Virus record (IMG/VR): IMGVR_UViG_2681813421_000002
Location: 22,586-86,585 of that record
Source of the DNA: a virus
Taxonomy: Duplodnaviria; Heunggongvirae; Uroviricota; Caudoviricetes
Length of the DNA stretch: 64,000 nucleotides
Direction: 5' to 3' (one strand)
How positions within the stretch are numbered: position 1 is the first letter of the stretch; each line of letters starts with the position of its first letter. Of the stretch, positions 4,560 through 59,298 are shown one piece after another. The position numbers and the translations under genes are program-made. The notes beneath the pieces are model-generated. The model had not been told where the DNA came from. It saw only the letters and a program-made list of their open reading frames with translations, and searched no databases.

Positions 4560-4898
4560 ATGAAACAGGCAACCAGAAAACCGACGACCGTAGGTGATAT
4601 CCTGCTGTACGAATACCTGGAGCCGTTAGAGCTGAAGATCAACGAGTTAGCAGAAATACTTCATGTTCATCGTAACACCGTAAGTGCTCTTGTTAATAAT
4701 AATCGTAAGCTAACGATGGATATGGCATATCGCCTGGCAAAAGCATTCGATACTTCTGTAGATTTTTGGATTAATCTCCAGACCGCAGTAGACCTGTGGG
4801 AAGTCGAAAATGACATGCGCGTTCAGGAAGAGTTAAGTCGTATCAATACTGCTGAAAAATTTATTTCTCAGCGGAACCTGAATAAAAAAGCAGCCTGA
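4560..4898 (+). CDS. higA: HigA antitoxin (XRE-type HTH)
   Basis: 112 aa; VGDILLYEYLEPLEL...HVHRNTVSALVNN HTH region, toxin-first gene order characteristic of higBA. Confidence 0.8.
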   Translation: MKQATRKPTTVGDILLYEYLEPLELKINELAEILHVHRNTVSALVNNNRKLTMDMAYRLAKAFDTSVDFWINLQTAVDLWEVENDMRVQEELSRINTAEKFISQRNLNKKAA

Positions 4899-11454: not shown

Positions 11455-11700
11455 GCAGCCTCCTTTTGCTAATTTAAGGAGCTACCGCGTGAGGTTCCAA
11501 TCTCAATGGCGGTAGCACTGACTGGGTTGGAACTACCGGCGCAAAAGGGAACCGGCCTGCCTTTCGGCAGCCCAGCCAGCACTACCATTGATCTCTGAGC
11601 TAAACGCTACGTATGGCTGTGCGATGGCATGACACAAGAAAAGACGCTTTCGGCGTCTGTGTCGCCTTTTGCATTATCCGGGGTTCCAATCCCGGCACCC
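11455..11700 (-). ncRNA. c4: c4-like antisense RNA region (immI-type) with repeated target elements
   Basis: Two hairpins whose loops carry GGTTCCAATC (plus-strand reading, near 11490-11520 and 11678-11695) and an intervening complementary element GGTTGGAACTACC; layout matches P1 c4 with a1/b1 and a2/b2 sites ahead of icd. Confidence 0.4.
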
Positions 11701-11763
11701 GTTTTTCTAAGGTGCCGTAGAAATATACCCCACGATAATGCCAGGGCGCAACAGTCAGTATTT

Positions 11764-21258: not shown

Positions 21259-22661
21259 TCACTATTACCAAAGAACGCCTGCTGACAATCCAGCAGTGGC
21301 GCGAAACATACGGACCTGGTAGCAACGTTGTACTGCCAGCAGAAGAAGCGGAAGAACTGGCACGAATTGCTCTGGCATCGCTGGAAGCAAAACCAGTTGC
21401 TTATATTTTCAAACATCCGGCCGGGAAATTATTCTGGGCTTTAACGGATGAAAGCAATAAAGAGCAAGCGGACGTTATTCCTGTTTATGCTGCCGCGCCT
21501 GCGTCGGTTGTGCCGGATAATGCATCAGAGCCTCTTGCTTATGCTTACAAAGAGCTTACGCCTGAGATTATGCGCAACCATTTAGCTGTATTCGAGCGAT
21601 ATGGAATAGCCCCAAACGATAGCTCTACCACAATTCAGGCACTGCGAATCGCGCTGGATGGTATAGAGCGGAGCGACGCCATGCTTCAGTCCGGAAACTT
21701 TCGGGAAAACAAGAATTCGTCAACCAATAATTTTCGGGAAATCGCGGAAACGTCAACCAACTATCCGGTAATTCCTAGTGAGCTGTTGTCCGCAATCCTG
21801 AAGGTTGCCAAGATTCGTGCCGATTTCGATGATTTTGACGGTGACAGGCGAGGTATCGATGATTGTCTGGATGAGGCTGAGCAAGAGCTTATCGTTACCA
21901 TTAACAAATATGCCAGTCAGTTGGCAGCAGAACCGATAGCGACTAATGACGTTCGAGAGCAAACAGCCGTTCCGCCAGTTCCGGTAATGCAGGCTGATGT
22001 CGCGCAGGCAATTGAAAAACTCAAACGGAAATTAGTGGAATGCAATCGCTATAACTACTGTGCAGATGCAGTTAAAGGCGTAGAGGATGCCTGCCGTGCT
22101 GTTAGCTATAGCCAAGCCGACAATCAGCCAGCATCTGGCAACCAGGCTGCCGAATCCAATCGCGGTAATGAGTGGACCGGCAATCCTGATATTGATAACG
22201 CCATCATCATGCTCGATCGCATAGATACGCTGGAAAGTTGCGATGATGACCGTATTGAGGCTGTTAAGGCTGTTTTGCGTAGACTGGCTGGCAACTATCC
22301 GGATATTCCGGATAGTTCGGTGCCAGCGCCAGGAAAGGGCGTCACCGGTGAACGTATCCGCATTAAGCCGCATGTTTATCGCGAACTGGTTAACCGTCTC
22401 CACGATACAGCGATCAAGTGTGCTGGCACCCAGCAATTACGAGAAAGAATTAGCCGTGTTTTGGGCGACGTTATTACACCAGATCATCATAAACAAGCCG
22501 AGAAAAGTGACCTGGAAAGGTGTCACCTTGAGGCGGCATTAAACATTAAGCCGGGGCATACGCTTGGCATTATTGATGCACTATTGGTTCATAAGATGGC
22601 CAGGGCTTTATTGCCGCTGGTGGCTGAAAAGCATGAGGTGGACCATGCCAACGAAAGCTGA
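21255..22661 (+). CDS. Hypothetical protein with internal tandem repeat and C-terminal motif shared with 13113-13724
   Basis: 468 aa; repeated FRENK/FREIAE segment; YRELVNRLHD...GTQQLRER. Confidence 0.5.
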   Translation: MITITKERLLTIQQWRETYGPGSNVVLPAEEAEELARIALASLEAKPVAYIFKHPAGKLFWALTDESNKEQADVIPVYAAAPASVVPDNASEPLAYAYKELTPEIMRNHLAVFERYGIAPNDSSTTIQALRIALDGIERSDAMLQSGNFRENKNSSTNNFREIAETSTNYPVIPSELLSAILKVAKIRADFDDFDGDRRGIDDCLDEAEQELIVTINKYASQLAAEPIATNDVREQTAVPPVPVMQADVAQAIEKLKRKLVECNRYNYCADAVKGVEDACRAVSYSQADNQPASGNQAAESNRGNEWTGNPDIDNAIIMLDRIDTLESCDDDRIEAVKAVLRRLAGNYPDIPDSSVPAPGKGVTGERIRIKPHVYRELVNRLHDTAIKCAGTQQLRERISRVLGDVITPDHHKQAEKSDLERCHLEAALNIKPGHTLGIIDALLVHKMARALLPLVAEKHEVDHANES

Positions 22662-35733: not shown

Positions 35734-35809
35734 TGGTGGCCCCTACCGGACTTGAACCGGTGACCGTGCGATTATGAGTCGCCAGCTCTAACCACTGAGC
35801 TAAAGGGCC
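35734..35809 (-). tRNA. tRNA with CAU anticodon, Ile2 (lysidine) type
   Basis: 76 nt with encoded CCA; near-identical in acceptor, D and anticodon arms to E. coli ileX-type tRNA as I recall it. Confidence 0.75.
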
Positions 35810-35836
35810 GGATTACTGCCAATTTTGCTTACGCTT

Positions 35837-36664
35837 TTATTTCACCGGAACAAACGGAACAGCGGCATTACTGGTCATATACTGCGGTAATGTACCGTTC
35901 CATTTGTTGATCGCTTCCAACTCCATAACACCGGGGTTCTGGCGCAGAGCTTCACCACGTAAACGAATGGCATCAGCTTCGGCCTGGGCTTTTGTGCGAA
36001 TAGCATCAGCCTGTCCGGCAGCTTCCGCGCGCAGCATGTTGGCCTCTGCTTCACGTTGTTTGACCTCTTGCTCGCGTTGCAGGGTTTTTTGGTTTGCCGT
36101 AACTTTGGCGTTAATACTGTCAATAACTGTTGGCGGATATTCTGGCTTACCTACATAAGAGAGGCTCATCACCTGAATGCCGATTGGCGTCATTTCTTCC
36201 TGAATGTCTTTAAGGGCTGCATCAAGCAATTCAGATTTGCCACCGTCGATAAATTTGTCGGTGGTCATTTTGCTGGCTAACCGGTTCAGAGCATCTGCAA
36301 CCTTCTGGCGTAGATCGGTATCAGTAATATCATCTACACCTTTGCGATAGGTCTGAAATACCGTTGTGACTTTTGCTGGATCAACCTTGTAGGCTACGCC
36401 GATGTGGTAACCAATGGTTGTTCCGTCGCTCATCTGGAAGCTGAACGGCTCATCGTATGTCTTCATTTGCTTAAAGGTCGGGAAGATATAAACTTCAGTA
36501 TTCAAGCCTGTCCAGTAGCGACCAACACCAACTACTTCACCGATACCTTTATCATCCCCCAGCTTATTTACTTTGATCCCTACGTTACCTGGCTCTACCC
36601 GATCGCATCCGGTCAGACATAAAGAACCCAAAATAATCGCTGCACTAATCAACGTTTTTTTCAT
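35837..36664 (-). CDS. plp: Prohibitin-like SPFH/band-7 lipoprotein (Plp)
   Basis: 275 aa; lipoprotein signal LISAAIILGSLCLTGC, SPFH-like core and Ala/Glu-rich coiled-coil tail. Confidence 0.75.
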   Translation of the reverse strand: MKKTLISAAIILGSLCLTGCDRVEPGNVGIKVNKLGDDKGIGEVVGVGRYWTGLNTEVYIFPTFKQMKTYDEPFSFQMSDGTTIGYHIGVAYKVDPAKVTTVFQTYRKGVDDITDTDLRQKVADALNRLASKMTTDKFIDGGKSELLDAALKDIQEEMTPIGIQVMSLSYVGKPEYPPTVIDSINAKVTANQKTLQREQEVKQREAEANMLRAEAAGQADAIRTKAQAEADAIRLRGEALRQNPGVMELEAINKWNGTLPQYMTSNAAVPFVPVK

Positions 36665-36881
36665 TAATTAATTTCCTGGTTTTTTCACGAAAAAAGACTA
36701 CTGCGAAAGCCGGGTAAATGAGCGCGAGAAGGACTCCCAACAATACAAGTATTGTGCTGTTAGATGAGATCATATTTGGCAAAAGCCAAACATACAGAAC
36801 CAGTGACACAATCAAACAGAGGACGGCATAAATATATAACCGCACCCATAGCGTTCGACATTTGTTCGGATTGTTCTGCAT
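36645..36881 (-). CDS. upl: Small membrane protein upstream of plp (Upl-like)
   Basis: 78 aa with two hydrophobic helices; overlaps plp start. Confidence 0.5.
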   Translation of the reverse strand: MQNNPNKCRTLWVRLYIYAVLCLIVSLVLYVWLLPNMISSNSTILVLLGVLLALIYPAFAVVFFREKTRKLINEKNVD

Positions 36882-37144
36882 CCTCTCACTCCATTATTTA
36901 ACGAATAAAAAAGCTGCGGTGCCGGGTACCTCCCGGTGTCCTTTGGCTGGTTATCCACCGTGGACGGGGAAACAAGGAGAAATGAATGGACTGATATAAC
37001 CATTTCCCCGCGTGCGCTTAGCCGCATTCACCGCAATGGTAAGAGCACTTGGCTGGCTGGGCGGCGATGACGCCTGTACGCATTTGGTGATCCGGTTCTG
37101 CTTCCGGCATTCGCTTAATTAGCCAAATACTCTTAACGTTGCAC

Positions 37145-37231
37145 TGGCGGAGAGTAATGGAATCGAACCATCATCGCTTGCGCAATGGGACGGTTTTCAA
37201 GACCGCTTGAGCACCATGCTCCCTACTCTCC
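37145..37231 (-). tRNA. Type II tRNA with long variable arm, anticodon UGA (Ser-like)
   Basis: 87 nt; acceptor GGAGAGT/ACTCTCC, anticodon stem GCGGT/ACCGT with loop CUUGAAA, T-arm GATGG-TTCGATT-CCATT, G73 and CCA. Confidence 0.5.
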
Positions 37232-37365
37232 CGTTATTGTGGCGACCGGTGCTGATCTCCGGCTTGCGGTTATTTCAGACTCTCACGGGCGTTTAATTGC
37301 CCCGCCGAACAGCTCTTTTCCGCAATAGCTGCAATGTCTTTCGCGCATCAGCCTGCGCATTCACC

Positions 37366-37457
37366 ACAATGTTGAGAACACTGGTTGTCACGCTGCAACG
37401 CAACATTTATTCATAGATTGGGATATGACCCCGTTACGCCAGTGTTCTCAACGTTGT
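37366..37457. repeat. 19-bp inverted repeat (18/19 match) separated by 54 bp
   Basis: ACAATGTTGAGAACACTGG ... CCAGTGTTCTCAACGTTGT in the tRNA-cluster intergenic region. Confidence 0.55.
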
Positions 37458-37603
37458 AGTGCCGGTTACGGTTCCGGCCAGGCCTCTTCCTCAACGGGGT
37501 GTTCTCCATACGGACTACCGTTTATTGGTCGTTCCTGCGGTTTATGTTGTGAAGCCAGATGCTTATCTTCTGGTTGCTTCAAAGAGCTGCACTTCATCAC
37601 AAC

Positions 37604-37677
37604 GGTAAGGGTACTTCGTAGGGATTCGAACCCTCTGCCAAGCACGGCGATCTCCGACGTCGCAAAATACCCTTACC
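37604..37677 (-). other. tRNA-like element with T-arm motif but non-canonical secondary structure
   Basis: Contains AGGGTTCGAATCCCT and a 10-bp terminal pairing (GGTAAGGGTA/TACCCTTACC) but I could not fit a standard cloverleaf; directly abuts tRNA-Thr. Confidence 0.25.
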
Positions 37678-37685
37678 TGTTGTGT

Positions 37686-37761
37686 TGGTGCCGGTTAACG
37701 GACTCGAACCGCTGACATCCTGCTTACAAGGCAGGCGCTCTACCAACTGAGCTAAACCGGC
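37686..37761 (-). tRNA. tRNA-Thr (anticodon UGU)
   Basis: 76 nt; GCCGGTT acceptor, GCTCAGTTGGTAGAGC D-arm, loop CUUGUAA, T-arm GGTTCGAGTCC, CCA. Confidence 0.8.
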
Positions 37762-37763
37762 AT

Positions 37764-37840
37764 TGGCGATGGTGGGTGGATTCGAACCACCGACCGACAG
37801 CTTAGAAGGCTGCTGCTCTATCCTACTGAGCTACACCATC
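37764..37840 (-). tRNA. tRNA-Arg (anticodon UCU)
   Basis: 77 nt; loop CUUCUAA, T-arm GGTGGTTCGAATCCACC, CCA end. Confidence 0.75.
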
Positions 37841-50929: not shown

Positions 50930-51200
50930 TAACAACCTGCGCCCCGCTGCTAAACGGGTGGCAGGACGTGACGGGGTTAGCAGACTGGCACGAATGAAAC
51001 CAGCAGGCCGAAGCCTCCCCATCACGCCCCACCATAATTCGGGCGTAACGTGGTTTTACGGACACAAAAAACCGCAATATCGGATATCTGCGGTTGTCCG
51101 CATTCGTATTCAGGCTGCTAAACCCGGTCGCAGAATTTGCTACGACGACATGAATATAAGCCTGAAAACATGGAAGATCAACTAAAAATTTCAGCAATGG
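50930..51200 (-). ncRNA. Second c4-like antisense RNA region with a different target motif
   Basis: Repeated GCTGCTAAAC elements (near 50935 and 51113) and a partly complementary GGTTAGCAG element between them. Confidence 0.35.
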
Positions 51201-53494: not shown

Positions 53495-55177
53495 TTAATT
53501 GCTCATCACAAATTTTGCAAAGTTTATTAACTGTTCTGGCGTCCAGTTTTCCGGATCGTCACCGGACGACAACGGCGCGGATTCGTACATACCATGCTCG
53601 TTGTTTTGCTCTGATTCATTCGCCTTAAACTCTTTGATCATGGTGTTGAGAGTGTCATCGTCGATGTGCAACTGCTCAGTGAACAGATAACGCATAAACG
53701 CGTCGCTACCAGCCAGTTTCGGGTTGTTCTGGATCTGGTCCATAATTTGGGAGATGACAGCAACAAAGTTGGCGCGTGCATCCAGTTCTCGGTTTTCCTC
53801 TTCCTGGATAGCTGTGTTCATTGAGTTGAATTGCACGTCATAAGGGCGATTTGTTTCGGTGTAAACCTTGCCGTATTTATAAGCGAGGTGAATGTCCAGA
53901 AGCCGATAAATAGTTCGCTGGGCGGCCTGTCTGATCCAGTTCGCACGCAATGCAGCCTGGATAGCAGTTTGCTGCCAGCCGCCTTCTCCAAGCCCTCCGC
54001 TCATCTGATCAGCCCAGCCAAGCATTGTTGCGTCAATGCCGAGGCTTGCAGCAAGCTGCCGGAGGTGAAACATAACGTCTTCGATACCACTGATATCTGC
54101 GGGTATGGATTGCGTATCAATGGTGATGCCGTTCTTCCCGTCTCCCATAACAGGTATCAGATGGTTAAGCACAGTCGGAATAGCGTTGGCATTAATCGAC
54201 CTTTGCGCCACCAGGTCACTATGACGCTTCAATGCCTGGCTGACGCCACGCGTATAGTTCGCCGCATTAACCGGGTCCAGTGTGTTCGTCGTAAGAGCAA
54301 TCAGGCGGTCAATTTTGGCTGCATTATTTCGCGTTGATTTCAGCGCGGCGAGCGAAGCACATAAATTAAGGTAAGGTTCATAGCTGTATTCCAGGAATGA
54401 AGTTCCGTAATTCTGCGTCTCCATTAACGGCTTATCAGCCTGATCACTTAACAGTGAGTACCCTTTTGTGCCGTAGCTAACCGGAATAACTTTATGCTGT
54501 GGCGTCCAATAGGGATTTTTCATGGAAACCAGATTCCACGGTTCGGTTATTACTCTGCGCAAACTATGCGTATCCAGAATGTAATCACCACTGAAACCTA
54601 CCAGCTGGCTACCACGATAAAACTCCTGGACGAAGTGTGGCAGAGTGTAATAACTGGACTCAATGCCTGTTATCCCCCTGCCCTGTTCAGCATAAGGTCG
54701 GACATAAGACACCCCAAAGATCGCCATAATCATGGCCCATGAAGGAAGTCCGTCATTAATCATCGTCCCCAAATCAGCGGTTAACTCTTCACATCTACTT
54801 ACTGCCTCGGCATCGGAACCATCCTTTGGCGAAAGGATGAATGCTTGTCCGGTTTTTTTTGAAGGCGCAAGCGCATGTGCAATGTGAATATTTAAAGCCG
54901 TCGAGATAGTCGGGCTTTTAGCCATCGTTTCCAGGATGTTGTACTTTTGCAGGCGGTCGCCGGGCAGTTCTGCCGAAATTGATACTGTATCTGCCGCGCT
55001 TGTCATGCCATCGCTATTGCCACCCAGTATCCCCGGACGTAAAGCGGACAGACCAGAACGCGCAACGACACTATGACCGCTCGTAAAAACGACCGGATCG
55101 GCAGGCGTGACATCGCCACTGTTGAAGGCTTTCTTCAATGCCGACAGAAAGCCTTTGTTTTTGTCTTTCGTTGCCAT
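53495..55177 (-). CDS. Portal-like protein (positional/size call)
   Basis: 560 aa in morphogenetic block downstream of the Dar operon. Confidence 0.45.
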   Translation of the reverse strand: MATKDKNKGFLSALKKAFNSGDVTPADPVVFTSGHSVVARSGLSALRPGILGGNSDGMTSAADTVSISAELPGDRLQKYNILETMAKSPTISTALNIHIAHALAPSKKTGQAFILSPKDGSDAEAVSRCEELTADLGTMINDGLPSWAMIMAIFGVSYVRPYAEQGRGITGIESSYYTLPHFVQEFYRGSQLVGFSGDYILDTHSLRRVITEPWNLVSMKNPYWTPQHKVIPVSYGTKGYSLLSDQADKPLMETQNYGTSFLEYSYEPYLNLCASLAALKSTRNNAAKIDRLIALTTNTLDPVNAANYTRGVSQALKRHSDLVAQRSINANAIPTVLNHLIPVMGDGKNGITIDTQSIPADISGIEDVMFHLRQLAASLGIDATMLGWADQMSGGLGEGGWQQTAIQAALRANWIRQAAQRTIYRLLDIHLAYKYGKVYTETNRPYDVQFNSMNTAIQEEENRELDARANFVAVISQIMDQIQNNPKLAGSDAFMRYLFTEQLHIDDDTLNTMIKEFKANESEQNNEHGMYESAPLSSGDDPENWTPEQLINFAKFVMSN

Positions 55178-55358
55178 GAGTCACCGCGAAATGTTTTCAG
55201 TTTGCGGCAGCATAATCAGTATGTGATTTTTGATGATGGATCTTTTCAACTAGAAATATTGGCTGGCCCCTCTCGTAACAAAGTGAAGAATAAAACTTGA
55301 ATATGCACATTGTGCGCATTAAGATTGAAAAAGTTGACCACTTTGCTGCGGAGAAATC

Positions 55359-55663
55359 CCATGAAAAGCTCTTTAATTAATTCCAAATTACACCAACTTG
55401 CTATCAAAAATCGAGTTCCTGCATGGTCGGTTTACATGCATATCAGCCGCGCATGTCTGAGCAATGAAAACATTTACAATCTGCAAATTCTAAGCCGGGA
55501 AGGCAGGACTTTGTTTAGCGTTGCAGAGGATTCCTATAAGGCCTGGGATATGCTGGATGACGCGTTAAGCCAATACGCGCAAACAGAAGAATGCCAAAAA
55601 GAATGGGCCAGGTACTGTGATGAAGGGATGCCATGCTGCGGTCTATTCGGCGCAGCTCTGTGA
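55359..55663 (+). CDS. Hypothetical protein (first gene of two-gene plus-strand cassette)
   Basis: Start taken at MKSSLINSK; Cys-rich C-terminus. Confidence 0.4.
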
Positions 55664-55675
55664 ATCGATTCAACG

Positions 55676-55939
55676 ATGATATACTTCGTTGCGAATCACA
55701 GCATTGGCAAAGGGCATATTGTGAAACAACTCCCACCAAACACCCCGGAAACTATAATTGAAATCCGCCAGCGAATGGGGCTAACGCAAACGGAGTTAGC
55801 CCACAAAATGGGGTATCAACTCCGGGCTTGGCAATTCAAAGAAGATAGAAATAAACCGAGACGCCTTATGGCTGGTGAATTTGAGTACCTGTTATTGCTT
55901 GCTGGAGAGCATCCTGAATTTATTCTTACACCACGCTAA
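55676..55939 (+). CDS. XRE-type HTH DNA-binding protein
   Basis: 87 aa; IRQRMGLTQTELAHKMG HTH. Confidence 0.5.
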   Translation: MIYFVANHSIGKGHIVKQLPPNTPETIIEIRQRMGLTQTELAHKMGYQLRAWQFKEDRNKPRRLMAGEFEYLLLLAGEHPEFILTPR

Positions 55940-55960
55940 AAAAACCCGCCTGACGGCGGG
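55938..55960 (-). terminator. Rho-independent terminator (strong on minus strand, weaker on plus)
   Basis: CCCGCC-TGAC-GGCGGG with a 7-T run on minus strand. Confidence 0.55.
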
Positions 55961-55973
55961 ATTATCAATCATA

Positions 55974-56267
55974 TCAATTCACATCAATGTCTTGATATGA
56001 TTCGCCAGTATCGTCTTCGTCGTCAGGATCTCCTTCCACCTCTGGCCACTCAACCTCCCAGCCAACAGTTTCCAGGCTCCGCAGAACAAACACCCCATCG
56101 GCATGAATGGTATTCACGATCCCCATTGCGGAATTTGTGTTGATAAAGCGTAAATCTTGCGCAATATTTTCTTCCGAAATATCGCCTTCAAATATACGCA
56201 ATGTGCCGTCATCAGAGCATTCAACAATCCCTCTAATCCCAGCGGGACTCACAATGCTATACTTCAT
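55974..56267 (-). CDS. Small acidic protein at distal end of Dar operon
   Basis: 97 aa, D/E-rich C-terminus. Confidence 0.35.
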   Translation of the reverse strand: MKYSIVSPAGIRGIVECSDDGTLRIFEGDISEENIAQDLRFINTNSAMGIVNTIHADGVFVLRSLETVGWEVEWPEVEGDPDDEDDTGESYQDIDVN

Positions 56268-59200
56268 TTTGCAACTCCTTCATACATCCCAAGAAAAATT
56301 CCAGCACGCCGTCATTGTTTAATACAGAGTTAGTCGCCTGCTCCGGATCGGCATACATCTGCAAGGCCATAGAAAAAATCTCAGTCGCCCTGCAATTGCT
56401 TAATGCAGGTGGCTTTGATATAAATCTGCCGCTGACAGAACTTACCGTATTTTCCATATAAATTTTAGACATATATCCATGACTTAGGTCGGTTCGCACC
56501 AAATACTCAGCACTGCCACGGCTACCAATATTATGATAAGAAACTTTACCGTTAGTTTTTGATTTAATGAAGGCTTTGGCCCTCTCCAATAGATGGGGAT
56601 TTGAATGTTCTATATGGTGACCTATTTCATGCCATAATACACGCTCGTGATCACTATTAGCATCAATTGTTATATTCCCATTTCGACTTGCAAAAGCACG
56701 AACATTGTTCTTGTGGTTAATATTTTTTAATGTAGATAAAGTCCCTCCTGAAATAATATAGGCTTTTTCAATCGTCTCGCGAATACTGTATGCTTTACGG
56801 GAGAAAGTTTCATTATCGTGACCACTTAACTGCTCTGCTTCATCAGAAATAGCAATCCCACGACTCCATTCCTTAGACTGGTCATGTGACACATTTGACG
56901 ATTCAAGAATCATGTCAAATGCGGCTCTGACTTTTTTATGTACTACATTTTCAAGCGCATTAGGATAGGCTTTTTGTCCACGTGTTAATGAAGCTATTTC
57001 ATATAGTTCTGCTTGCAAGTCTTCCGGTATGTCCAGATTAAAAACAAGCATTTTTTTCAGATCATATCCAATCCCATGATCATTCTGGTGCAAAACCTCA
57101 GCAAGGTAGTCAGTGAGTTTTTCCTTATTTGACCTAACTTTATTGATTTGTTCTATAGTAAAGTCAACACGCTCCTTGATTCCGTAATATGAGGAATGCT
57201 CTGCTAATTCCACTATCTCCTTAAGCCTGACAAGTGTCTCAATATACGCATCAGCGATCTCCTCTGCCGTTAGTTCAGAGCTAACTCCGACACTGGCTGT
57301 TATTTTCCTACCAGCCGCCATAATATCGTCGATATTATGCAAGCTCTTTTTGAATAACTTCAAAGTATTTTGGATTATGCACACCATCTCTTCTGCGCTT
57401 CCAGCTTTATTCATTTCCTTTCTAAATCTTAAAGCTGTTTTCTCTGCAATAGACGCTGGAGATTTTAAATAGTTACCTAACCAAACAAGACAACCATTGC
57501 GCAATTCATCAATACTAAAGTCATCAGGAATATGTTTTGCTGCATTATGTAAAACACGTATAAATTGTTCAGCGGGCACGCCTTCTTCTGATATGTTGCA
57601 AAACGTTTCAATATCACAATCAATATTTCTTTCATCTGCGAGCGAAGGAGCTTCATCTCCTTTTTCAATCGCGTCACGCAGTGCGTTAGCATAAAAATTG
57701 CTGCGTTGATAAGACAATAACATCGTTGTTAACACAGCGTCGCTGTATCCATAACGTTTAGCCCACTCCTTAATCTCATTAACGGTGACATTGCGAATAT
57801 AAAAACCAAGTTCCAAAAATACATTGCGCTTTATTTTTTTTGCGGACTCCTTAATTTTTTCTGACACCTTCACGATTCGGATCAAGTCCTCCACGCTGGT
57901 CGCATCAGCAATTAGCTTTGAAATGTATGGTTCGACATCTCCTGAAACCGATTCAAACATGGCGAAATTAAGCCCTTTACCTTCGCCATACTCAGCCTCA
58001 ATTTCATCAGAAACGGCAGATAAAATGCTACGCAGATCGACATCTCCGCCGCCGAACATATCGCCTAACGCTTGTTGCTGGTGAATAAGTTCATCGTTAA
58101 TTTTTTGCGCCAGTTTCTTGAAAGCTGCCCCCATTCGCTTAGCGCTTCGGTTGTTGGCAACAATAAACAGAGCAAGCGCTTCTGCTTCCGGAGTGCTATC
58201 TCCAAACAATCCACGCTGTGCGATCACCTCTTCTACTGCCTGACCGTTATCTTTTGCTTCACGAACAAGGTTAATTGCTTCCTGTAGCGCGGCAATAGCC
58301 TGTTTATCCAGACCATTCAATTGCTCTATACCGTCTACCAGTCCGGTTACCGTGTCATGGTGAACATCACCTGAAAGCGACTGCATTTGCGCAAAATCGC
58401 TGGCTGCCGTATTTAATGCGGTAAGAATGTTACGCATTTCCGGATCTGGCTCTTCCGCCACCAGCCGAACAAGCCTTTCATCCTTGTACGCTTTGGCAAA
58501 AATTGCATTCTGGATGCGGTCGATAAGTTGTTTCGTTGGACGCCCATCGGCAGTAAGCAAACCTGCCGTCGCCGTATCACCTATTTCGCGCAAAAACGCA
58601 CGAATAAACGCATCATTGGACCGCGCCAGTAGATTTCCATCATCTGAAGGATTAAATAGCGCCATGACGCTCTCAGTGAGAAATTGCGCATCCGCATACG
58701 CTTTTTCACTTGCAGCCATCTCTTGCAGATCGCTGATGTTTGAATCACGGGCAAATTGTGCGCGGTCTACATCTGTGAGTCTTTCTCGCACCAATACGGG
58801 CATAGACATTTGTGAAATGTCGTCAGGATTCAGACCAAACTCTTTTGCATGATCGATCAGGTACTGGCGATATTCATCCGCCTGCCCTTGCTCATAGGCA
58901 CGCCAGATACCCATGCTCCTTCCGTTGCCGGATTCAACAACGTTGTCCGGACCAACTATCGGCGCTCCGTGGCTGCTCATGCCGGAATCCGTTAATTGTG
59001 CCGGGCGTAAATTGGAGGCAATACGGTTAACCTGGAGTTTGCTTGATAGCCGTGTACGGTCACGTGGCTGGAGTTCTTCCGGGAAGGCCGGATTAATCGT
59101 ACCGTCAAGGTTGTTCGAAATGATCAGACTGCTGGCATCAACGACCTTAAAAGCCGTCTTTACCTCTGCCCCTTTACTGGTGACTACGTAACTACTGCGC

Positions 59201-59298
59201 CCCTGGCGTGTTTCTCGCCTCTCTAATGAAGAAACCAGCGCAATAACACTGTTAATGTCTGCTGCTTCGGATAGCGCGGAAGTAACTGACTTGTTCAA
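56257..59298 (-). CDS. ddrB: DdrB-like large virion-associated antirestriction component with C-terminal HExxH motif
   Basis: 1013 aa; position and size match P1 ddrB; WHEIGHHIEH near C-terminus. Confidence 0.5.
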   Translation of the reverse strand: MNKSVTSALSEAADINSVIALVSSLERRETRQGRSSYVVTSKGAEVKTAFKVVDASSLIISNNLDGTINPAFPEELQPRDRTRLSSKLQVNRIASNLRPAQLTDSGMSSHGAPIVGPDNVVESGNGRSMGIWRAYEQGQADEYRQYLIDHAKEFGLNPDDISQMSMPVLVRERLTDVDRAQFARDSNISDLQEMAASEKAYADAQFLTESVMALFNPSDDGNLLARSNDAFIRAFLREIGDTATAGLLTADGRPTKQLIDRIQNAIFAKAYKDERLVRLVAEEPDPEMRNILTALNTAASDFAQMQSLSGDVHHDTVTGLVDGIEQLNGLDKQAIAALQEAINLVREAKDNGQAVEEVIAQRGLFGDSTPEAEALALFIVANNRSAKRMGAAFKKLAQKINDELIHQQQALGDMFGGGDVDLRSILSAVSDEIEAEYGEGKGLNFAMFESVSGDVEPYISKLIADATSVEDLIRIVKVSEKIKESAKKIKRNVFLELGFYIRNVTVNEIKEWAKRYGYSDAVLTTMLLSYQRSNFYANALRDAIEKGDEAPSLADERNIDCDIETFCNISEEGVPAEQFIRVLHNAAKHIPDDFSIDELRNGCLVWLGNYLKSPASIAEKTALRFRKEMNKAGSAEEMVCIIQNTLKLFKKSLHNIDDIMAAGRKITASVGVSSELTAEEIADAYIETLVRLKEIVELAEHSSYYGIKERVDFTIEQINKVRSNKEKLTDYLAEVLHQNDHGIGYDLKKMLVFNLDIPEDLQAELYEIASLTRGQKAYPNALENVVHKKVRAAFDMILESSNVSHDQSKEWSRGIAISDEAEQLSGHDNETFSRKAYSIRETIEKAYIISGGTLSTLKNINHKNNVRAFASRNGNITIDANSDHERVLWHEIGHHIEHSNPHLLERAKAFIKSKTNGKVSYHNIGSRGSAEYLVRTDLSHGYMSKIYMENTVSSVSGRFISKPPALSNCRATEIFSMALQMYADPEQATNSVLNNDGVLEFFLGCMKELQNEV

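Follow-up and report, generated by a model that had tools for sequence, protein, structure and literature searches.

Operons that couple anti-CRISPR (acr) genes to anti-CRISPR-associated (aca) regulators offer the nearest described parallel to a two-gene cassette that we analyzed in the caudoviricete record IMGVR_UViG_2681813421_000002. The cassette encodes a small protein (gene A) and an XRE-type helix-turn-helix (HTH) protein, and it lies in a 64,000-nucleotide stretch of the record (positions 22,586 to 86,585; hereafter the window, which is numbered from its first letter). The window belongs to a D6-like phage-plasmid of Escherichia coli from the P1 family. In acr-aca operons, such as acrIC7-acrIC6-aca10 of Pseudomonas citronellolis (Aca10, PDB 7XI5) and that of Aca3 (PDB 9VT3), one or two small, poorly conserved proteins are encoded on a mobile element upstream of a small (65–76 amino acids), single-domain HTH protein that comes last, and the cargo varies while the regulator stays conserved; the cassette is alike in all of these respects. 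Searches that use aca genes to find acr genes look for this pattern, in which small genes upstream of a conserved regulator vary (PMC9410881, PMC13551039), and according to recent work operons under Aca control harbour many anti-defence candidates that are not Acr proteins (PMC13551039). The Aca10 operator has been mapped by electrophoretic mobility shift assay to ATACGCTCA-T-TGAGCGTAT, inside TTGCAA-N16-TATTCT (PMC9410881), and residue R44 of Aca10 has been shown to be critical for DNA binding.

Two other described systems invite comparison. Type II toxin–antitoxin operons of the mqsRA and higBA kind resemble the cassette in having a small protein followed by an XRE HTH protein, an MqsA-like HTH sequence and a palindrome at the promoter. 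DUF905/YkfF is a long-standing domain of unknown function in the cryptic prophages of E. coli K-12. Genes for DUF905 have also been reported near psiB/psiA on conjugative plasmids (PMC12826799).

We interpret the cassette as an autorepressed acr-aca-like accessory operon in which gene A is a candidate for a protein-binding counter-defence factor, and we put the probability of this reading at roughly 0.45. We arrived at it because of a combination of features: a conserved terminal HTH protein, an inverted repeat in the promoter, a variable orphan cargo, a mobile element and a variable site beside an anti-restriction operon. An anti-CRISPR/Aca-type counter-defence cassette looks like a better fit than the toxin–antitoxin pair suggested in the original prediction. 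Literature searches on DUF905, ddrB/hxr and P1-like hotspots turned up no account of the cassette itself, and what is new here is best classed as an accessory or anti-defence-type operon that is presumably autorepressed by its HTH protein and whose cargo comes from an orphan family.

Genes, putative promoter and operator of the cassette

We observed the anatomy of the cassette directly, in its gene structure, in the purifying selection on both genes, in the conserved palindrome, in the modular build of the locus and in the sequence affinities of the HTH protein. The cassette has these features:

55297-55325, plus strand: putative sigma-70 promoter, with a -35 element TTGAAT (55297-55302), a 17-nucleotide spacer and a -10 element TAAGAT (55320-55325)
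55301-55319: operator-like 9-1-9 palindrome ATATGCACA-T-TGTGCGCAT, which occupies the whole spacer of the promoter; presumably bound by a dimer of the HTH protein
55350-55353, plus strand: Shine-Dalgarno sequence GGAG of gene A, 7 nucleotides before the ATG, read from the sequence
55361-55663, plus strand: gene A, 100 amino acids, the cargo of the operon
55721-55939, plus strand: XRE-type, Aca-like HTH gene from GTG, in a reading frame open from ATG 55676; presumed autorepressor
55945-55960: G+C hairpin CCCGCC-TGAC-GGCGGG, common to the convergent units, from a terminator scan and folding

The promoter and operator (55297-55325) fall outside the interval 55359-55960 to which the original prediction had assigned the cassette.

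Both open reading frames are real protein-coding genes, because the ratios of nonsynonymous to synonymous substitution rates (dN/dS) show purifying selection. We compared the window with a homologous locus from an independent metagenome (L003), which has the same context and encodes a gene A product with 76 per cent amino-acid identity to that of the window. By the Nei–Gojobori method, gene A has a dN/dS of 0.17 and the HTH gene one of 0.08, the flanking genes giving values of 0.04 to 0.11, and the HTH protein is much better conserved between the two loci than gene A. The two genes are separated by a 57-nucleotide gap and show no translational coupling. The HTH gene most likely starts at GTG 55721 (72 amino acids), because its homologs all begin with M-x-x-LPPNTPET; AAGGG (55710-55714, plus strand), read from the sequence as Shine-Dalgarno-like, stands 6 nucleotides before this codon. 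Two other starts were considered. The ATG at 55676 (87 amino acids) is disfavoured by the N-termini of the homologs, and the ATG at 55775 used in RefSeq (54 amino acids, WP_164843726.1; locus L001, 6596-6760) would remove helix 1, with the probable start lying about 18 codons upstream.

The promoter assignment is comparative, because it is the layout that is conserved across loci. The same order of a -35 element, 17 nucleotides and a -10 element is found in L003 (TTGAAT/TATGAT), L025 (TTGCCA/TATAGT), L039 (TTGCTT/TACAAT) and L043 (TTGCCA/TATTAT). The position of the palindrome is likewise kept in eight diverged locus types (L003, L015, L025, L032, L033, L037, L039 and L043); in L003 it is a perfect 9-1-9 repeat followed by a better -10 element (TATGAT). 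The site is unique in the window, where 0.01 would be expected by chance, and no further operators for the HTH protein were found within these 64 kb. In geometry and in placement within the promoter spacer, the palindrome is the same as the mapped Aca10 site (ATACGCTCATTGAGCGTAT). Spacer palindromes of 19–21 bp with 9/10-1-9/10 symmetry are thus found in both systems, reading ATATGCACA-T-TGTGCATAT in the cassette and ATACGCTCA-T-TGAGCGTAT for Aca10.

Across loci, the operator sequence covaries with the recognition helix of the HTH protein. The sites in L015, L025, L037, L039 and L043 are of the type ATA(T/C)NCACA-N-TGTGNRTAT, and GCACA-N-TGTGC sites go with the recognition helix GYQLRAWQ. Locus L032 has ATACGTCA-TTT-TGACGTAT (ACGTCA-N3-TGACGT) with the helix GYPLRSWQ, and L033 has two copies of TACGCAC-AATC-GTGCGTA with the helix GYALRTWQ. 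The palindrome is therefore presumed, from sequence comparison, to be the binding site of the HTH dimer. We also considered whether it could be the -22 box of a P1 late promoter (Lpa) and rejected this possibility, because its sequence is unlike that of the P1 boxes (AAGTGACTT). A second, perfect 12-bp palindrome (TGAATCGATTCA, 55661-55672) overlaps the stop codon of gene A; it is not conserved in L003 and is therefore probably fortuitous.

Under the acr-aca-like reading, the sigma-70 promoter at 55297-55325 would drive gene A and then the small HTH gene, and an HTH dimer would bind the 19-bp 9-1-9 palindrome in the promoter spacer and block RNA polymerase. From such repression we infer a burst of expression when the phage-plasmid DNA enters a repressor-free cell, with low expression afterwards in the plasmid-prophage state. 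Gene A would be the payload, a place that DUF905/YkfF, or both proteins together, would take in relatives. Small and soluble, its product would probably work through binding to a protein of the host or of a competitor, and its most likely role, beside the Dar anti-restriction operon, would be counter-defence.

A constant regulator with changing cargo

Across related loci, the conserved frame consists of a promoter with a palindrome, a variable small cargo and a terminal HTH gene. The cargo differs among them as follows:

The window, L003 and L032: gene A alone
L015-18, L033 and L043-45: gene A and DUF905
L025-28: DUF905 alone
L036: an 84-amino-acid protein without an assigned family
L038 (2559-2938): frameshifted gene A and a DUF905 fragment, with the HTH gene intact
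L037 and L039: no cargo, the HTH gene alone
Klebsiella loci: the HTH gene behind an insertion sequence, which replaces the upstream part

The DUF905 genes of the module are genuine (1.2e-18 to YkfF). The HTH gene occurs without gene A in L020-24, L025-28, L037 and L039, and a gene A homolog on a 291-kb Citrobacter plasmid (L034) has no HTH gene within 10 kb. In L038, the cargo decays while the regulator persists. Wherever both neighbours are readable in P1-like loci, the module is convergent with the hxr-like gene that ends the Dar operon.

The constancy of the HTH gene also allows a different interpretation, in which the protein is mainly a phage regulator with targets of its own (for example lysogeny, lytic genes or the convergent Dar/hxr operon), and gene A and DUF905 either ride along as passenger morons or modulate the HTH protein, for instance as co- or anti-repressors. 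The HTH gene is indeed the only constant element of the module. Many diverged P1-like lineages retain it at this position, facing the hxr-like gene, even where the cargo is missing. Between the window and L003 it has diverged far less than gene A, and it shares a terminator with the Dar operon. However, no second operator-like site is present within the 64 kb, and P1 and D6 lack the HTH gene, which is therefore dispensable for a P1-type life cycle. Furthermore, most members of the HTH family are found on conjugative plasmids, and these carry no phage functions. We therefore consider a dedicated phage regulator rather unlikely.

The distribution on conjugative plasmids is extensive. In a tblastn search, full-length HTH homologs with 40–55 per cent identity were found on 4,208 PLSDB plasmids, 3,821 of them conjugative, including plasmids of the IncX3, IncI2 and IncL/pOXA-48 types. 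These homologs carry the GEFEYLLLLAGEHP motif (GE(F/Y)E(Y/L)LLLLAGEHP), and RefSeq names some of the relatives ‘antitoxin Xre-like HTH’. On IncX3 (L041, 1494-3425) and IncI2 (L042, 2580-4231) plasmids, whose backbones are widespread among resistance plasmids, the HTH gene is the last of a conserved four-gene operon whose cargo comprises a DnaJ-domain protein, a protein of about 180 amino acids (183 in one case) and a protein of 85–93 amino acids, none of them related to gene A; hhalign found no homology between gene A and the 93-amino-acid IncX3 partner. The IncI2 palindrome lies inside a predicted promoter spacer (TTGATA-ATACATCTAAATAGATG-TATTAT), and that of IncX3 abuts a predicted -10 element (ACCATCA-TT-TGATGGT-ATAAT). 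An IncL/pOXA-48-type plasmid (NZ_CP068859.1; L040, 4734-5213) encodes a 159-amino-acid tandem fusion of two HTH copies, and this fused gene shares its region with JAB/RadC-like, DUF3085 and DGQHR-domain genes.

The terminal position of the HTH gene in these operons, together with their promoter palindromes, points to a general terminal regulator of accessory operons on enterobacterial mobile elements. A bolder extension, according to which the HTH proteins would make up a new Aca-like autorepressor family of very wide distribution in such elements, with new counter-defence cargo expressed in a burst on entry (gene A and DUF905/YkfF included), is doubtful, and we offer it tentatively.

Affinities of the HTH protein and of gene A

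That the second gene encodes an XRE-type HTH protein, as first proposed, is borne out by searches with the family profile against PDB and by a match to phrog_7950 (‘transcriptional repressor’, 4e-6); in the single sequence, HTH_3 stays under the Pfam cut-off (17.7 versus 23 bits). Among PDB entries, the single sequence matches Aca10 (7XI5) best (E-value of 0.024), with about 38 per cent identity over 50 residues as counted by hand, and the arginine that corresponds to Aca10 R44 is conserved in the family. The family profile matches Aca3 (9VT3; 2.9e-6), the HTH domain of MqsA (1.2e-5) and Aca10 (9.1e-5), and further matches are to generic Cro/C1 proteins, including 434 Cro and repressor, P22 C2 and HipB. 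Members of the family also match the Pfam models MqsA_antitoxin (1.9e-7 at best) and Xre-like-HTH (1.3e-5). These profile matches place the protein in a subgroup with Aca3, Aca10 and the MqsA HTH domain, in which ‘Aca’ and ‘antitoxin’ are not separable by sequence. Architecture, on the other hand, may tell them apart. The HTH protein is a bare 72-amino-acid domain that aligns nearly end to end with Aca10, Aca3 and the HTH half of MqsA, and its alignments contain no Zn-binding or other additional (toxin-binding) domain; it is thus a single domain as in Aca3 and Aca10, without the toxin-binding Zn domain of MqsA.

Gene A belongs to a small orphan family. A word-based search for homologs yielded three near-identical clusters, and an exhaustive hidden Markov model (HMM) search of 1.84 billion cluster representatives added five to six, giving about eight true members of 94–102 amino acids. 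One HMM hit (P0023) was discarded as a TPR false positive. An aberrant ‘homolog’ of 105 amino acids (P0002) is explained by the frameshifts in locus L004 (GCA_949813125.1), which split the portal gene, ddrB, darA and gene A and are probably an artifact of sequencing quality. Searches with gene A against Pfam, PHROGs, PADLOC and NCBIfam, and a profile search of PDB sequences, all came back empty, and nine family members compared with Pfam at E-values up to 10 gave no match either, PF06006 (DUF905) included.

The gene A protein is soluble and near neutral, with an isoelectric point (pI) of 5.6 (5.1 to 7.8 in the family). Its invariant residues are VPAW (19-22), G48, E77, W82, R84, Y85, E88, P91 and the C-terminal leucine. 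The original prediction described it as a Cys-rich protein of about 100 amino acids. The length is correct and the window allele has five cysteines, but C78 alone is mostly kept across the family, so Cys richness is not a conserved property. An AlphaFold model from an eight-sequence alignment has a predicted local distance difference test (pLDDT) score of 85.4 and a predicted template modeling (pTM) score of 0.76; an earlier AlphaFold2 model, built from three sequences only, had reached a pLDDT of 66. The predicted fold is alpha-beta3-alpha2 (helix 2-16; strands 24-30, 37-44 and 50-55; helices 61-72 and 76-87), followed by a C-terminal tail that is predicted to be disordered yet is conserved (P91-x2-G-x2-G-x2-L). 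Foldseek searches with the model found no significant match in BFVD or PDB, and weak resemblances to dsRBD, HPF and T7 Gp1.2 were rejected as non-significant.

These results bear directly on the toxin–antitoxin reading, which follows the higBA/mqsRA order: gene A would be the toxin and the HTH protein its antitoxin and autorepressor, and the pair would act in addiction or abortive infection, stabilizing the phage-plasmid or defending its host. Two small co-directional genes with an orphan protein first and an XRE HTH protein second, a palindromic operator at the promoter, and the matches of the HTH family to the MqsA_antitoxin and Xre-like-HTH models and to MqsA structures, echoed in some RefSeq names, all accord with it. 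Low-copy phage-plasmids, moreover, profit from addiction modules, and P1 has phd-doc. Nevertheless, searches of Pfam, NCBIfam, PADLOC and PHROGs matched gene A to no toxin family, and its AlphaFold2 model resembles no toxin fold; neither in sequence nor in predicted fold is it RelE/MqsR-like. The bare HTH domain lacks the toxin-binding extension of MqsA; neutralization of a toxin by the HTH domain itself, as in HipB, may be conceivable. The pairing is also not obligate, given the loci with the HTH gene alone or with DUF905 and HTH genes and the Citrobacter gene A homolog that lacks an HTH partner. In addition, a DUF905 gene often sits between gene A and the HTH gene, the 57-nucleotide gap is at odds with translational coupling, and members of the same HTH family end four-gene operons of unrelated genes on conjugative plasmids. 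Taken together, this evidence does not support the proposed toxin–antitoxin pair, which we regard as quite improbable.

Another possibility, compatible with the acr-aca-like reading, is that gene A is a divergent paralog of DUF905/YkfF and that the module is a DUF905-type cassette, possibly related to establishment. DUF905 genes adjoin or replace gene A in the same module, including that of sister phages, and both encode small soluble proteins on mobile elements. The DUF905 family (YkfF-YpjJ-YeeT; PF06006; nuclear magnetic resonance structure 2HJJ) is also the best, though weak, structural match of gene A, and hhalign lines up a beta-hairpin of one family with the corresponding one of the other (LxLLxxxGxxhF versus LVLRDxEGxxhW). 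Yet the hhalign probability is 0.5 per cent, the Foldseek E-value is 0.58, sequence homology is not detectable even at the permissive Pfam threshold given above, and, compared with DUF905, gene A carries two additional helices at its C-terminus along with a conserved tail. Common ancestry of the two proteins is therefore conceivable but doubtful.

Several observations weigh against an acr-aca-like operon. Unlike acr-aca operons, the cassette contains no validated Acr or other anti-defence gene, and no cargo protein of the module has demonstrated anti-defence activity; for gene A and DUF905, the PADLOC search returned no match at all, and those of Pfam, PHROGs and NCBIfam returned no family of anti-defence proteins. 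CRISPR-Cas is largely silent in E. coli, so the target, if any, is more likely to be another defence system. By profile, the HTH protein is about as similar to the HTH of the MqsA antitoxin as it is to Aca3 and Aca10, and it is no closer to the latter two. The family also differs from Aca3 and Aca10 in its specific C-terminal GEFEYLLLLAGEHP and N-terminal LPPNTPE motifs and in its hosts, which are phage-plasmids and conjugative plasmids of Enterobacteriaceae. The window promoter is weak on paper (8 of 12 positions agree with the consensus) and was missed by a consensus scan, and the window palindrome carries two mismatches. Finally, the HTH gene is kept without cargo in L037 and L039, which suggests that it may have a role beyond repressing the cargo.

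The variable site and its surroundings

The region of the window is collinear with phage D6 and with non-mobilisable E. coli plasmids of about 90–96 kb. The immediate neighbours of the cassette are:

53495-55177, minus strand: portal gene prt, to the left of the cassette and preceded in the order repL, pro, prt
55974-56267, minus strand: 97-amino-acid hxr-like gene, outside the cassette (phrog_2292, 2e-39)
56257-59298, minus strand: ddrB, 1013 amino acids (PF18763, 1e-41), after which come ddrA, darA and hdf

As originally predicted, the cassette is thus a pair of co-directional plus-strand genes between the head genes and the Dar operon, with the portal gene on its left and the ddrB operon on its right; the portal gene, the hxr-like gene and ddrB are all encoded on the minus strand, opposite to both cassette genes. 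The view of the cassette as a self-contained unit with an XRE-type regulator is supported as well. The strong terminator ascribed to it needs qualification. The hairpin is real, with six GC pairs and a folding energy of -12.6 kcal/mol (z = -3.3), but its run of seven T residues is on the minus strand (55938-55944), so that it is a canonical terminator of the ddrB/hxr-like operon; with a weak plus-strand tail (AUUAUCAA), it is at best a weak, shared bidirectional terminator for the cassette. In L003 (about 4840-4856), the stem CCCGCC/GGCGGG is kept and the loop is reverse-complemented (TGAC versus GTCA), a difference that looks like an inversion of the hairpin.

The site was also expected to be variable, and the locus comparison agrees. 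Of 96 PLSDB plasmids with the adjacent portal-proximal sequence, 4 carry the cassette, and so do 6 of 99 complete E. coli genomes in which this type of portal gene is present; in these genomes it is always located on a plasmid. At the same site, D6 carries a short ddrB (454 amino acids), orf24 (with a weak DUF4145 match) and orf23. The segment for which D6 has an alternative extends from about 55230 to about 57940 and takes in the cassette together with the hxr-like gene and the C-terminal half of ddrB, where the HExxH motif lies; the right end of the segment was deduced from 53 per cent coverage and the 454-amino-acid ddrB of D6. D6-type plasmids accordingly have two distal Dar alleles, one with a long P1-like ddrB (1013 amino acids, HExxH), the hxr-like gene and the cassette, and the other of the D6 type (compared at L002, phage D6, 6000-8506). 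A swap to the D6-type allele removes the metallopeptidase-like half of DdrB.

Homology searches found both gene A and the HTH gene to be absent from P1 and D6. The original prediction had implicitly tied the XRE gene to the hxr region of P1, and like hxr the cassette lies next to ddrB. However, P1 hxr, the last gene of the darA/ddrB operon, corresponds to the 97-amino-acid minus-strand gene and not to the cassette HTH gene, which we accordingly rejected as its counterpart. The 97-amino-acid protein is a homolog of P1 Hxr (41 per cent identity by tblastn); its gene closes the Dar (ddrB) operon and shares 11 nucleotides with ddrB, the same overlap as in P1. The homolog is very acidic (pI of 4.05) and has no HTH match in Pfam, which makes the P1 label of hxr as a ‘homolog of Xre’ look doubtful. 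The statement that the res-mod genes of P1 lie next to hxr/ddrB was wrong: the neighbours of hxr are isaB/IS1/isaA/ssb, and res-mod is located about 15 kb away.

Elsewhere in the window, Rfam identifies two separate C4 antisense-RNA loci (11505-11592, 11637-11715, 50954-51039 and 51107-51159, minus strand), one adjoining an isrK-like small RNA and the other adjoining a1/b1 target sites upstream of icd/ant/repL, so the phage-plasmid carries two ImmI-type immunity RNA modules. A cluster of four transfer RNA genes (Met-CAT, Ser-TGA, Thr-TGT and Arg-TCT) is located at 35734-37840 on the minus strand.

If the cassette is an acr-aca-like operon, gene A and, by association, DUF905/YkfF would gain a functional context, and a second counter-defence locus would lie directly beside the Dar operon, which would help to explain differences in host range among D6/P1-like phage-plasmids. 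If it is a toxin–antitoxin pair instead, gene A would represent a new toxin family. Under the acr-aca-like reading, the conserved signature of regulator plus operator would also flag accessory operons, both in P1-like phage-plasmids and in thousands of plasmids that carry resistance (IncX3 NDM, IncI2 mcr-1 and IncL OXA-48 backbones), and, should the HTH proteins prove to be a widespread Aca-like family, the HTH gene and its operator would provide a guilt-by-association handle for anti-defence genes in clinically important plasmids.

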